A stretch of 64,000 nucleotides of DNA, from NCBI RefSeq assembly GCF_054482595.1, contig NZ_CM137008.1; one strand, written 5' to 3'. Each line of letters begins with the position of its first letter. Within the stretch, counting starts at the first letter, position 1. This document shows, piece by piece, positions 15,001 to 21,000 of this stretch. The position numbers were made by a program.

Positions 15001-18000
15001 GGATAGCGCGCTTGCAGCATCGGAACCGACATCAACCACCCCACCAAAAGCGCCGACAGCGGCGCTTCCTGCGGCCGCTACTATCAACCCGTATTGTAAT
15101 CCGATGCATGCAAGCATGACGGTTTCAGCAGTTCTGGAAGAGTTTCTGGCCTATAAAAATACGGGTGATATCAAGTTAGCCAGTGAGGGGAAAATTCGTT
15201 CCAGAATCGAGCACTTTACGGAGATTATGGGTGATATGTCCTTAGGTGAGCTGGATCGTGAGGTCGTGAAGGATTACGTCAGTAGAATGCAGAAAATGCC
15301 CGGCAATCTGTATTTGATGCGGCGGAAATACAAGATTTCCGACACGCGAATGTTGATCGAAAGGGCGCTGGCTGATGGTCAGCCGGTAATGAGCCGGGAT
15401 GCGATTGGCAGGCATATTGAGTCACTGGGTTCGATGTTCAAATGGGCCAAGAAGGTGCGTTACCTGCTTGATAATCCAGCCGAGAATGTGCTCGCTCAGC
15501 GCCGCGTGATGGTGCGTGAGCAGGATCGCCGAGATCTCTTCACCGAGGATGAACTATTGCGTATTTTCTCTGCTGACTGGTTCAAAACTGGTGCCGGAAC
15601 ACCTAACCAATACGGACGTTACACGAGCTTTCGCCCGTTTCACTACTGGTTGCCCCTACTGGCATTATATGTGGGCGGGCGCATCAATGAGCTTTGCCAG
15701 CTTTATCTGGCGGACATTCGCGTGGATAAAAACGGTGTTGCCTATATTGATTTTAATCTTGATGCACCGGATAAGATGATGGATGAAGAGGCACTAGCCG
15801 GTGGCGATAAATCCTTGAAAACGGTGAATGCTATCCGTCAGGTTCCCCTACATCCACGACTGATCGAACTAGGGCTACTTGAGTATGTGGATGCGTTGAA
15901 AGCTGCCGGGTATGATCGTCTTTTCCCTGAGTTGAAGCATAATAAAATCAAAGGATATCGTGCCGCCGCCTCAAAATGGTTTAACGAAAACTACTTTGGC
16001 AAAGTCCTCGGTTTTACCCGTGACGGTAAGAAAACGTTCCATTCGCTGCGGCATACTTTCATCAACGCTGTTGACAAGTATGAGACCAACGAACGCACGA
16101 TTGCGCAGCTTGTTGGACATGTCCGGGGCAGCACTACTGCGATGACAACCTATCGTAAGGATGCTGATGTGGGAGAGCAATTGGACGTGATTTCGCAGCT
16201 TTGCTACAACTTGCCTGATATTGCGCAATTCGACTCGCAAGCGGGTATCAAGGCGGTCAGTGACGCACGGCGCAGACATAAATCGTGAGATGTGCCAAAC
16301 GCGCCAGGAAGCTCTATGGCGCGTTTTTTATCAAGGGTAGTGGAAATCATGGTGCGGAATTTGCGGCGCTTTCGTAGCTCGACTGGCGCAGCTAGATGAA
16401 TCAGATGTAACCTTCAACAAGCAGCCTCTTTCGCAATATTTAAACAACTAGCGGAGTATGGATGTTAATGGCGACCTACAGACAAATTGCCGATGATGTT
16501 AAATCCCGAACGGGGAGAACAGTCAAAACATGTTGGATAGCGCATGTTAAGTCATTGCATGGGCTAACCCGCCGCGTATCTCCAAACCGCATTAGCACCG
16601 AAAGCCGTGTTTATCCTTGCCCTGATAAATGGGTTGCGGAGATCGAGCAATCAATGAGAAATCTGGGCGAGCTTTAGCTCTTTACTGCGCCGCTTAACTT
16701 TTGAGTCTGTTTGGCTCTATAAGGACTGTCTCGCCGCCACGGAAATTTTCGGACGCAATGCCTGAGAGGGAGCTTCCAAACCTAGGACTTCCACTTTCCC
16801 GCACCCAACTTATCCGGCTGCTTTTAACCGCGAACACGTTGAAGGTTAACAACGTTTAGTTCATGTCTGACTGAAAGGAACGGCCACCGACAAACACCGT
16901 TAGAGAAGGTATGTAAGCTGATAGTTGAGTTGCTATATATACAGTTATTAAGAGAACTGCACCCAGACCAGCAGGAATGCAGCTTCTTTCCTGCTGATTG
17001 TCACTTTTTTCTGGAATAAGGGAACGAGCGGTAGTTCAAACGTGGAGACGACGTAAGGCGCCCTTGACGGCGTTTTGCAGATCGCTAACAACCGCCAGAT
17101 GAGAGCTTTCTTTCCGCAGACGCTTGTCACCGTTGACCATCATCCAGCTACGTTTATCCCTACGCCCGATGTTATTGAATGAATGCAAGCCGCGCTCGGC
17201 TGTTGCGTCGTTCACCCTACGAACTGCGTTGATAGCGGTAAACCTGAACATATCACCGTTAGCCATCATTTCAGGCTCGATTGGTTTGCGAAATTTGAAC
17301 AGGTGAGCGAGGGTTTCAAATCGAAAGTGTTGTATGTCGTTAAGGCGGTTAAGAGAGTAGTGAGTGAGCACAGCACCTTTTAACGTGACTTCAACACGAG
17401 CGCGTTGCTTTTCTACAGGTAGTTTCTGACCGTCGTCAGTGCATTTGTGGTAGACATGCCACGAGATCTTGTCCCACTTGTTACCCGTTCTCAGGTTCCA
17501 TTCAGGATTGATACGAACATCCTGAACATCAAGGAAAACATTTTGTCGAGTTACGGGATTGTATTGTCGGGCTTTGGTTCCCGGACTGAACAGGGAACTT
17601 TGAAGCCGATAGGTCATCGCATTTGTAGCGGTAATCGACCGGGCTTTGTGCCAGAAATCGCAGAAGACTTCGACCCCCACAATTTGCGGCTCGTAAGCAA
17701 ATGGGAAACGATTTTGTAATTGGTCGAGGGCGGCTTCCAACTTCCCGTTATGGTTTGCTAGTAGATCGCGAAAGCGAATCCGAAAAACGTTGTTAGTGTT
17801 GCTTATGATGGGCTTTACCCAAGGTTTGACGTAGTTACCGGGACGGTGTTCGCACGATGCCAATTTTGAGATACGTAGACCGCAGGGTTCAACCCAGAGT
17901 TTTAATCCGGTGATTTTAAGTAATTCTTCCTGAACATAGCGATGCTGGGTCAGTCTAGATAAGCTGATCGTTATGTCCAGCCAGTCGATCCCGGCTGAGA

Positions 18001-21000
18001 CTTTAAAGAATTTGCGGTCTGCTTCGGCAGCTTTGCATTCTCGACTCTTCATAGTGTGGCCTTATTGAACGGAATCTCAAACTGCCATCAGGGTAATTCG
18101 AACTGAGCAGGTTTGAGAGCATTCGAGCAAGGTAGCATAACAATTTTAAGATAAAAACCTTACTTATCAACTAACTGCGTTCATATTCTGAACGCAGTAG
18201 TCGTTGTTAACTTAAAGGCATGAGAACACTGTCGTTTTTCATATACAAAGGGTGCTTCGGCTCACCTGTAGCGATTCAGAGAAAGCACATGGTGCTATCT
18301 GGTAAAGCCGTCAGCCAGCCTAATATGTCTTACCACTTTTGAGCGCCAACAAACGACCGTTTTCTGGCACCTTTCGATCGCACACTTTCACACTGTTGGA
18401 AAATTAGCCTTGGCTTTTCTGGCAGGCCATCCTAAGTTGACACCGTTTTCTGGCAGGGGCCGGAAGAGGAGATGACTATGGCGATTTTTGGCTACGGGCG
18501 CGTTTCGACATCGCAGCAGGATACTGAGAACCAGCGTTTGGAACTTGAGCAAGCTGGATGGACTTTCGACTTTTGGTTTACTGATGTTGTTAGCGGGAAG
18601 GTTCCTGCGCTGCAACGCAAAGCGTTTTCCGAAATGCTCAGCAAAATCCGCGATGGTGAAACGCTGGTTGTTGCCAAACTCGACCGACTGGGACGCGATG
18701 CGATTGATGTTCTCCAGACTGTCAGGGCGATGGCCGAGCGTAATATCAAGGTCATTGTCCACCAGCTTGGCACAACGGATCTCTCCTCTGCTGCCGGTAA
18801 ACTTCTGTTGTCGATGCTGTCAGCAGTTGCGGAGATGGAACGTGACCTACTGATTGAGAGGACCCATGCGGGTTTGTTGCGGGCAAAAGCTGAAGGCAAG
18901 AAGCTGGGAAGACCGTCGAAAATCGCCCCAGAAGTCCATAGGCTGATTATTGAGAAAAAGAATAATGGAGCCAGTGTCAGCGCACTAGCGAGGGAGTATG
19001 GCGTTTCCAGAGCGACTATAGCTGCACTATTAGATTATTAGCAATTTAGATTTTTATTACAACTTCTGAATGGCAAGAGTGCTAATCTTGGAGAGTAAAA
19101 GCCCCCAAATGGGGGCTAAGTTAATAACTAATAATGGACGTTTGCGATGAATTGAGGGAGAAGTTCTTTAAAATCATCTCTATACATATCCATATCACTC
19201 TGGAAACGAGAGATTATTTCTGTAATTTCTTTGCTTTTGGATAATCTTCCTGCTGTAGCTGGTTCTAACAGTGCAGATCTTGTTAATACCCTTTTTATTA
19301 CAGGGATCCATAACTCCTTCGCATTTTCTCTATTGACGCCATCTTTGAAGGATAATGAATATTTATTAGGTATCGCTGAACCTAATATTATTTCCAATAT
19401 GCTTGCTATAGCATGAATCATTAACAGTGATACGCCAGGTTGGGTCAATAGCTTATGTTTAATAGTATCTATTTCAGGAAGCTGGTTATGCCTAAATTGT
19501 TCATTAAAATCCGATTTTATCTGGCTTATAGCTTCATTTAAAGAATAGACAAAGATAATATGACCTAGAGTAATTGTATCATCAAAAGCCTTTTTATAGA
19601 GATCCTCATCATCCCAAATATCTTTTTTTCGATGATATGCACTTGTAGGATGAGCATGAAAAGCGATCAGGATTTGTGCAACTGTATCCGTTGGTAATAA
19701 AATTCTTTTTTGAGCCGGAGTTAACACTTGGCGAAGGCCACCTGTATATAAAGCTTCCTTATTTTTCTCGAAATCCTTTCTTAATCTTTTTTGTATAGAA
19801 TCACTGGAGCGAAAATCTGAGCGCAAGACCTTGTTTTGTGAATTATTCGCTAGAGTGATTTCATTAATTAGTTCGGGATTATTAACTCTTATGAACCTAA
19901 TTGCAACTCTTAGCGTATCATCTGGATCTTTCCCTAAATTTGAAATACTACCAGTAGTTTGAGCACCATTGACAATAGAAATACCAGTAACACTTTTAAT
20001 TTGACCGAGTGTTTTGGATTCGTCAATGAAATCAATTTCAAAATCATGGACTAAGGCAGTGATTCCGTTATTAAATACAAAGAAATTTCCTGGGTGTGTT
20101 TTAGCCGTGTTTTGTATTTCATTATTTATTGAGAGGTCTTTTTTATTACTTCCTAAATAAGACCTTACATTAGCGCTGAATAGTTTATCTTCACCGTAGC
20201 TATTATATAGTTCTTTAATAAATTTCCCTGGCATAAGGGTAGAAAATGAGGCCCAGTTTTCATTAGAGTTTTGATAAAAGCCATGCATACCAGTCAGCGA
20301 TATTTTATCTGATATCAAAATTGGACTGTGTTGAGAGTTATATAATTCATCAAGTGAACTTAAACCCATTTGCTTGGAGCTTATTCTCAGGTTATCAATA
20401 TGATAAATTGAGTTTAATTTGTCCATAATTGAACGCCCAATCGAATGTAAAGGTTTCTCACATTCTGGTGTTTCAGGGCAGTTATGAACAAACCATACAT
20501 TTATTTTCTCAATTTCATTATTTCTTAAAGCATCTCTTGCATCTTTTACCTGATCCCTTATCCTCAGAGGTATATTCTCTATATCAGCGGAAAGCAACGC
20601 GGTTTCTGCATAAGCTGTTTCTTGGGCCTTAGACGGCTTGGCCCCTTGAGGTCGAAATATAGTAGATTGATAAGATTGTATAAGATATATTTGTTTGCTT
20701 TCTCTATCGGTCATTAATATGTCTATATTTTCATCATCTCCCCCTTCAGTTATTATGTCGGGAGCTATCAATTCAATGCTGTCTATATTGTTATGTAACT
20801 CTATTGCATATAATGCACAATTTAAATTACCATATTTTTCTAGATCTTTTCTCTGTTGCAATGCTGACCAGAAAGAACTATCTGAAAGCTGTGTATATGT
20901 CATGATAAAACCCTTTTTATTAATATGTAAATTTTATCTCATTCTATCTAAAATCATTTTTTTATATCTAATGATATAACATTAAATGTATGTGAAATAT

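Follow-up and report, generated by a model that had tools for sequence, protein, structure and literature searches.

Which functions are encoded by the genes that lie directly downstream of the integrase in a small genomic island? We address this for a 64,000-nucleotide stretch of an Escherichia coli chromosome (contig NZ_CM137008.1 of RefSeq assembly GCF_054482595.1; hereafter the window), in which the genes xdhA, actS and glyU are followed by an island containing, in order from the tRNA-Gly gene glyU, a DUF6538 integrase, a small open reading frame (ORF), a 338-aa gene, a DUF1643 remnant, a serine recombinase and an AIPR/AbiU-like gene (Table 1). A sequence-only reading had pointed to two ORFs of 71 aa and 338 aa directly after the integrase, in a position where excisionase, regulator or replication functions are usual, and both are present there as described. 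The replication part of that guess holds for the 338-aa gene, by virtue of its fold, its motifs and a candidate nick site; the excisionase part does not hold for the small gene. We consider it probable that the 338-aa protein (Rep) is a divergent Rep_trans/MOBT nicking-joining enzyme, acting as the replication or transfer initiator of this tRNA-Gly-integrated island.

The 338-aa ORF is a real gene. Pairwise comparison with three related islands gives ratios of nonsynonymous to synonymous substitution (dN/dS) of 0.23-0.27, indicating purifying selection, and the gene is labelled 'hypothetical protein' by RefSeq in E. coli strain THO-010, which carries the same island. A word-indexed search identifies homologues in 80 clusters (Enterobacterales, Pseudomonas and Burkholderia), every named one of which is 'hypothetical' and none of which has a Pfam domain, and an exhaustive search with the family profile (E<=1e-3) reaches 962 representative clusters at 50% identity. 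The sequence-only reading could name a family for neither ORF, and ordinary profile searches fare no better: Pfam, NCBIfam and PADLOC are empty for both, PHROGs adds only a group of unknown function for the small ORF, and there are no matches to housekeeping families. Searches with hidden Markov models of the kind that the sequence-only reading had suggested (excisionase, replication-initiator and primase profiles) would miss the family; linking it to a known fold required structure prediction together with iterated profile searching. Neither protein has a tblastn match in phage genomes (50,697 phage records).

An AlphaFold model built with 41 homologues is confident (pLDDT 86.4, pTM 0.83) and is matched to the Rep_trans fold, a crescent formed by a two-fold repeated beta-sheet and flanking helices. 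Rep_trans chains take all six top places among the Foldseek matches (E 7e-7 to 1e-5, probability 1.00), followed by chains of the TATA-box-binding protein (TBP), and the pT181-family proteins (RepC, RepD; RepDE 4cwc, RepSTK1 4cij; PF02486) are the best and only strong structural matches. The structural alignments to Rep_trans chains show just 12-17% identity, and the 338-aa protein has a lineage-specific, low-confidence insertion of about 30 residues at approximately positions 57-85.

The residues expected of such an enzyme are strongly conserved. D23, E128, D132, R219 and E221 are invariant in all 66 divergent family members, K203 is present in 65 and D206 in 64 of them, and Y201 is kept by the whole close family (41 of 41) and by 55 of the 66 distant members (with Met in ten and Gln in one). 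Y201, K203 and D206 have the spacing of motif III (Tyr, Lys at +2, an acidic residue at +5), and D23, E128/D132 and E221, the putative metal ligands, occur in the expected order and sequence context. In RelSt3 (and RepD), mutagenesis has defined acidic residues at three separate positions (motifs N', I and IV) together with a motif III of the form Y-x-K-x-x-E, whose Lys is essential (PMC6499999), the reference residues in RelSt3 being Y252, K254 and E257 (PMC6499999); the pattern in the 338-aa family matches this, which supports a putative Rep_trans/MOBT catalytic set. Alignment with hhalign of a broad family alignment (A3) to RepC, whose sequence was rebuilt from the pT181 record, pairs W-H-V-Y201-H-K with R-I-Y191-N-K, RARVEVTL with WRVEIEL, and IEVxxDF with LDLAFDF. 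The motif-consistent alignment is obtained from A3 only; the match given by the close-family alignment (A1) was spurious and was discarded, and a search for RepC homologues returned only sequences more than 80% identical, yielding no improved Rep_trans profile. Among the 66 distant family members, 16 match PF02486 (best E 3.1e-7). The sequence evidence is weak when taken alone and coherent when taken together with the fold. We conclude that the 338-aa protein lies inside the Rep_trans/MOBT superfamily and outside the curated PF02486 family, and that its gene adds a new and so far unannotated branch to a known superfamily of enzymes.

A conserved non-coding block follows the gene. The first ~111 nt after the rep stop codon are 90-97% identical in five copies, taken from E. 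coli, from Citrobacter and from a plasmid, among which the synonymous divergence of rep is 0.2-0.65. In distant lineages (40-47% Rep identity) the architecture of the block persists, as an A-run with GTGACAA or GGGACAA, a variable stretch with local hairpins, and the invariant sequence C[CT]TA[AT]TAACT (alignment A7), the variable stretch setting the two conserved motifs 58-72 nt apart and the flanking DNA being unalignable between these lineages. A single copy of the 10-nt motif CYTAWTAACT is found close to the 3' end of rep, on the rep-sense strand, in 18 of 21 rep-bearing sequences (the window and 17 other loci), including two in which Rep identity is near 29%. It lies 69-85 nt past the rep stop codon in the 13 lineages measured, which span Escherichia, Citrobacter, Phytobacter, Enterobacter, Serratia, Pseudomonas, Burkholderia, Paraburkholderia, Parasulfuritortus and Azonexus, and within the last 60 nt of the called rep ORF in L006-L008. 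The three loci without it are L009 (which has Met for Y201), L026 (Rep 29% identical) and L027 (with only a 50-residue Rep fragment), and the other exact matches are single strays, elsewhere in the window, in the THO-010 locus (L001) and in pT181.

Most versions of the site read CCT AATAACT and contain CT'AA, which is the nick core of Rep_trans origins and MOBT origins of transfer (oriT; PMC9371924). The pT181 origin (L005) reads CTCTAATAGCC, CTCT'AATAGCC and AACCGGCTACTCT'AATAGCCGGTT on its rep-sense strand, and the candidate site resembles it in having CT'AATA on that strand. Given the conservation of the site and its likeness to CT'AA cores, we therefore propose, from sequence comparison, that the block is the cognate origin of the Rep-like protein.

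Comparison with related islands places the gene in a recurrent context. About 20 loci in Gamma- and Betaproteobacteria share an order consisting of a divergent resolvase, an operon of 2-4 small genes plus rep, a variable slot, and a convergent DUF6538 integrase of ~650 aa, and 16 of the 21 rep-bearing sequences (the window and 15 other loci) have a resolvase transcribed divergently from the rep operon. An orthologue of the integrase (35-40% identity) adjoins the Rep-like gene in Pseudomonas, Burkholderia, Serratia, Enterobacter, Phytobacter and Azonexus, and the integrase matches are weaker or partial in Aquabacterium (L026) and Parasulfuritortus (L022). The integrase of the window matches Pfam DUF6538 (E 1.9e-9) and Phage_integrase (E 4.6e-8) and phrog_1 integrase (E 2.9e-35), and has a dN/dS of ~0.11 relative to the related islands. 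The cargo varies from locus to locus, and includes AbiU/AIPR in the window and, elsewhere, reverse transcriptases, an nSTAND/SLFN helicase with a MazG-like gene, and Druantia DruA. Integrase, Rep and resolvase thus form a conserved backbone, syntenic across classes, of gamma- and betaproteobacterial islands with defence cargo. In most lineages other than E. coli, rep closes an operon whose other members encode 2-4 small conserved proteins (~157, 115, 118 and 91 aa; L003 7165-7996, L006 5506-7137 and L018-L025). Pfam scans assigned these small upstream genes to no family; their products may have accessory roles in origin binding or excision. In the E. coli lineage they are absent, and a highly conserved 'DUF1643 remnant' block takes their place. 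Three metagenomic rep-bearing contigs (L006-L008) show no terminal overlap, and hence no sign of circular episomes.

Upstream of rep, in an alignment of five copies (A5), the putative promoter hexamers and the right arm of the 10-bp hairpin are conserved, and the inverted repeat in the leader looks to be re-formed with different bases in L010. The DUF1643 remnant stretch is more conserved than the rep coding sequence, and a longer version in L011 has a weak match to Pfam DUF1643 (E 0.029). Homology with a plasmid-borne copy ends at 18305, which marks the left edge of a portable rep cassette; this 1.4-kb segment (16907-18305: upstream block, rep and origin-like block) is found alone on 27 large plasmids of E. 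coli, Salmonella and Shigella, where it abuts IS1 and is without the integrase, resolvase and small gene. Because the remnant stretch outconserves rep and marks the edge of the plasmid cassette, it is probably a functional element in cis and not a gene in decay.

Several observations weigh against the assignment of the 338-aa protein as an initiator. It has no match in Pfam, NCBIfam, PHROGs or PADLOC even at E<=1; it matches neither PF02486 nor PF22477, and so does not qualify for a curated family; and those PF02486 matches of its relatives that were inspected individually score 13-17 bits, below the gathering cut-off of 29.6. Searches of PDB sequences with phmmer and with the family profile gave noise only and did not reach the Rep_trans entries, and the hhalign match of A3 to RepC is weak (E 0.003, probability <10%). 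No relatives were found on small autonomous plasmids in PLSDB. A Rep-like subgroup of ~400 aa has Met (R-I-M-D-K) at the position of the catalytic Tyr while keeping the acidic residues and the Lys (L009 8001-9215; P0227, P0233, P0236, P0247, P0266, P0268, P0291, P0294, P0296 and P0299); L009, the one locus of this subgroup examined, lies among Druantia-type defence genes and is without CYTAWTAACT. At the site itself, CTAA is replaced by CTTAA in the window lineage and by CTATT in two others, and there is no consistent GC-rich hairpin around it, only short or lineage-specific stems, unlike the loop sites of pT181 and ICEBs1. Finally, no helicase, coupling protein or single-strand origin was identified, and the E. 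coli module may be incomplete, since the small genes upstream of rep are absent.

With these reservations, and starting from what is observed (the fold, the conserved motifs and cis site, the gene backbone and purifying selection), we infer a nicking activity, the position of the nick, a use in replication or transfer and a role for the resolvase as follows. The DUF6538 integrase would excise the island as a circle, on which the Rep-like protein would recognise the origin-like block beginning ~25 nt past its own stop codon. The cut would fall on the rep-sense strand, in or close to the CT'AA-like core of CYTAWTAACT (within or next to CT/TAATAACT), with Y201 as the putative nucleophile and the metal held by D23, D132 and E221. 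With the free 3'-OH as primer, host enzymes could then carry out rolling-circle synthesis and so copy the excised island transiently, and the nicked intermediate could pass to the conjugation pore of a helper, as with NicK of ICEBs1 and Orf20 of Tn916 (PMC5704250); the divergent serine recombinase would resolve multimers. The model for this scheme is provided by the MOBT enzymes, which serve both the transfer and the replication of the excised element (PMC5704250).

A narrower role, which we regard as unlikely but as the best of the alternatives, is that of a purely conjugative MOBT-like relaxase. In that case the 3' block would serve as oriT, the island would be an integrative mobilisable element dependent on a coupling protein and pore supplied by a helper plasmid or ICE, and the protein would have no part in maintaining the excised circle. 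The fold and motifs are as in MOBT relaxases (PMC6499999), the CT'AA-type core is as in MOBT oriTs (PMC9371924), genes for a replication helicase or for partition are missing from the element, this Rep is not in use on any small plasmid, and the plasmid-borne copies reside on MOBH-type mobilisable or conjugative plasmids. However, a coupling protein or pore gene is present in none of the ~20 loci, and the 338-aa protein, in which motif N' begins at residue 23, is without the N-terminal helix-turn-helix (HTH) domain that is required by MOBT relaxases to bind oriT (PMC9371924). MOBT relaxases are, moreover, reported from Firmicutes alone and act together with FtsK/TcpA-like coupling proteins (PMC5704250), and those known also replicate their elements (PMC5704250), which makes a role in transfer alone less economical.

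It is improbable that the protein has kept the Rep_trans fold and does not initiate, either as a relic or as a nuclease or regulator recruited to serve the defence cargo. The presence of AbiU/AIPR, reverse transcriptases, the nSTAND/SLFN helicase and Druantia DruA in the islands would fit this reading, as would the loss of the tyrosine in one subgroup, of the upstream partner genes in the E. coli lineage and of attR in this copy. Yet the cargo changes while Rep, site, integrase and resolvase stay, a pattern of backbone rather than of cargo partner; all of the catalytic residues are intact with a dN/dS of ~0.25, and the adjacent DNA site is conserved across proteobacterial classes. Least probable of all, and very much so, is that rep and its two flanking blocks are a self-mobile rolling-circle transposable unit, IS91/ISCR-like but with a Rep_trans-type enzyme, the 3' block being the origin end (in IS91, too, that end is found 3' of the gene for the transposase) and the conserved block upstream of rep the terminator end: the isolated 1.4-kb unit on the plasmids and the greater conservation of both non-coding ends than of the gene would suit it, but a transposing unit would scatter rather than keep the same resolvase-integrase position in every chromosomal locus, the IS1 that the plasmid copy abuts can explain one boundary, the other coincides with a cargo slot of the islands, and the near-identity of the 27 plasmid copies (87.6-87.9%) suggests one capture event.

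Returning to a nicking-joining initiator as the preferred reading, its relationships to characterised systems can be specified. RstA of CTXphi and other filamentous-phage initiators belong to the Rep_trans superfamily and serve integrating elements of Gammaproteobacteria; the island differs from the CTXphi systems in having no coat, assembly or ssDNA-binding genes and in having its own tyrosine integrase at a tRNA gene. The protein shares with the pT181 family an N-terminal Asp and the xDxxFD/IEVxxDF, Y-x-K and R-x-E motifs, but differs in its C-terminal helical region and its ~30-residue insertion, in having its candidate site 3' of the gene rather than inside the 5' part of the gene as in pT181, and in belonging to an integrated island in a proteobacterial host rather than to a small plasmid. 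With the MOBT relaxases (RelSt3, Orf20 and NicK, of ICESt3, Tn916 and ICEBs1) and the Rep_trans-encoding integrative and mobilisable elements (IMEs) of streptococci (for example IMESag-rpsI) it shares the combination of a Rep_trans-fold enzyme with a tyrosine-integrase element, a putative catalytic Y-x-K-x-x-[E/D] motif with three acidic residues (PMC6499999), and a candidate core of the CT'AA type (PMC9371924). Unlike them, it has no N-terminal HTH domain (no HTH profile matches it) and no sequence-level family match, its hosts are gamma- and betaproteobacterial, its element has a backbone of DUF6538 integrase and resolvase, and neither a coupling protein (FtsK/TcpA-type) nor pore genes are present in any of the related loci.

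Many small islands, including defence islands at tRNA genes, are without known means of replication or transfer. The assignment ties a large unannotated family (962 clusters, all "hypothetical") to a known DNA-nicking mechanism, with a probable site and catalytic residues, so that the mobility of this class of island becomes directly testable, and it suggests a profile and a DNA motif that are now missed by annotation pipelines and by relaxase and oriT finders. Rep_trans/MobT-encoding ICEs (integrative and conjugative elements) as well as IMEs are treated as a feature of Firmicutes (PMC5704250, PMC6499999), and initiators of this type would be extended from the elements of Firmicutes to proteobacterial islands. 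As a tentative generalisation, which we hold to be possible rather than probable, integrase, Rep and resolvase may form the backbone of a widespread and undescribed family of small gamma- and betaproteobacterial integrative elements that replicate by rolling circle after excision, are mobilised in a MOBT-like manner by the first such relaxases outside Firmicutes, share CYTAWTAACT as a common nick site and act as exchangeable carriers of anti-phage defence, with the small gene of the window (S69) representing a novel class of small free-roaming genes for DNA-binding regulators or for counter-defence. Literature searches on DUF6538, glyU islands and Rep_trans in Proteobacteria returned no description of the element.

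Table 1. Features of the glyU island and its surroundings in the window (coordinates are positions in the window).
Feature	Position	Strand	Basis or remark
tRNA-Gly(CCC) glyU	14182-14255	+	ARAGORN, Rfam
CCTCCTACAA repeats, same orientation	14319-14328 (near attL); 25048-25057, 25061-25070 (near former right end)		pattern search
Tyrosine integrase, 647 aa, N-terminal DUF6538 and C-terminal Phage_integrase	14345-16288	+	Pfam, PHROGs
Intrinsic terminator of integrase, perfect 10-bp stem and T-run	16297-16333	+	inverted repeat I3
S69, 69 aa (71-aa ORF open from 16462)	16468-16677	+	conserved start of relatives
Candidate origin (double-strand origin, dso, or oriT) of Rep-like protein	16907-17030	-	conservation, motif search
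Conserved site CTTAATAACT	16943-16952	-	84 nt after rep stop
Hairpin with 9-bp stem	16969-16996	rep-sense strand	
A-run and GTGACAA	16998-17010	rep-sense strand	
338-aa Rep-like gene (rep)	17036-18052	-	divergent Rep_trans/MOBT superfamily member
Putative catalytic residues of Rep-like protein	D23, E128/D132, Y201, K203, D206, R219/E221		
rep upstream control region	18075-18198	-	inverted repeats, alignment A5
Inverted repeat in rep 5' leader	18075-18118	-	
Sigma-70-like hexamers	-10, 18143-18148; -35, 18165-18170	-	
Perfect 10-bp hairpin	18174-18198	-	
DUF1643 pseudogene remnant (PGAP)	18207-18305 (conserved stretch 18200-18305)	-	annotated in THO-010, ABWA45 and strain 15A
Three direct TTTTCTGGCA repeats, just 5' of serine recombinase	18358-18461	+	read from sequence
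Serine recombinase (resolvase)	18472-19041 (PGAP start 18478)	+	Pfam Resolvase E 3.7e-36, HTH_7
AIPR/AbiU-like abortive-infection cargo gene, 591 aa	19128-20903	-	Pfam AIPR E 4e-34; PADLOC AbiU E 1.7e-29
IS2 copy, 1331 bp	21199-22529		95.6% identical to K-12 IS2H
Truncated island right end	25048-25083	+	pattern search, comparison with intact THO-010 end

The small ORF is likewise a real gene, left unannotated by RefSeq in THO-010, and only the start proposed for it by the sequence-only reading needs correction: the true start is the second ATG, at 16468 (MATY...), as relatives have a non-Met codon at the position of the upstream ATG, and the product is thus 69 aa long rather than 71. Its homologues form 83 clusters of ~69 aa with the consensus MATYxQIQxDVKxRxGxTVKTCWIAHVK...PNRIS...PCP, in which VKTCWIAHVK, PNRIS and PCP are sharply conserved, and pairwise dN/dS values of 0.04-0.09 relative to related islands indicate purifying selection. 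The sole library match is to phrog_27283 (unknown function, E 9e-19), and none of 37 relatives has a Pfam match. Three helices are predicted, with a weak resemblance to HTH proteins and the LacI headpiece, and S69 is probably a small DNA-binding protein. The gene fills the variable slot in enterobacterial islands only, and is absent from the Pseudomonas and Burkholderia versions. A cassette of ~390 bp containing S69 is common to the window and a Phytobacter island (96% protein and 80% DNA identity) whose Rep is only 46% and integrase 39% identical. Other relatives lie within the head module of a Providencia prophage (on the opposite strand), near mazEF and a Tn3 transposase, adjacent to an integrase that is unrelated, in Fibrobacter-like chromosomal DNA, and in chromosomal contexts without an integrase. 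Because S69 also occurs in these unrelated contexts, a role as excisionase or recombination directionality factor is unsupported; there is no match of the Xis, AlpA or HTH_17 type and no consistent linkage to an integrase. S69 behaves as an independent passenger gene and is no dedicated partner of the integrase.

The terminator of the integrase lies between that gene and S69, and its stem is kept in related islands with some compensatory changes (alignment A4, RNAalifold). We considered this hairpin as a nick site and rejected it, since a stem followed by a T-run, recurring ahead of unrelated cargo, is what a terminator would show. Together with a conserved tail the strong hairpin makes up a block of ~100 nt (16297-16400) 3' of the integrase, which is directly repeated at a second cargo slot in related islands (L010 11205-11260 and 14450-14526; L017 9637-9746 and 11649-11761); its role may be that of a portable terminator plus promoter, or that of a site where recombination exchanges cargo. 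The segment between S69 and the origin-like block (16690-16900) is non-coding and conserved in E. coli and Citrobacter islands, with only short ORFs overlapping it. It was rejected as a single-strand origin or small RNA, having no stable fold (z +1.3) and too little variation for covariation, and Rfam identifies only the tRNA in the window. The TTTTCTGGCA repeats in front of the serine recombinase may be a res-like or autoregulatory site.

Homology with E. coli K-12 breaks off at 14256, immediately after the tRNA-Gly gene, and the attL core corresponds to the last 18 nt of that gene (14238-14255, TTCCCTTCGCCCGCTCCA). The segment from 14100 to 19200 is identical in nine complete E. coli genomes and at least 99.9% identical in five others. 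In THO-010 the island is ~9.6 kb long and its right end is an 18-nt repeat of the 3' end of the tRNA, TTCCCTTCGCCCGCTCCA (L001 ~24697-24714). A search for an attR repeat across the window found the 18-mer once only, at attL; attR is missing because the right end has been truncated by IS1, which starts at 25084. Since attR has been replaced by an IS1-bounded resistance region, this copy of the island is probably immobile and fixed in place, with its module stranded although intact. The CCTCCTACAA repeats, of which there are three matches in the window compared with 0.08 expected by chance, may be arm-binding sites of the integrase.

Downstream of the AIPR/AbiU-like gene there is an IS2 followed by three further genes. 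The IS2 sits between the AIPR/AbiU-like gene and a 283-aa ORF, and is missing from the otherwise identical island of THO-010. The IS1 at the truncated right end is followed by ~13 kb of plasmid-type multiresistance DNA. This region (25084-38000), with IS1 and then mph(A)/mrx, chrA, mer genes and ISCfr1, took the place of the right end of the island, attR and the adjacent ygeQ; it has a G+C content of 58-67% and is 100% identical to segments of many plasmids of the Enterobacterales.

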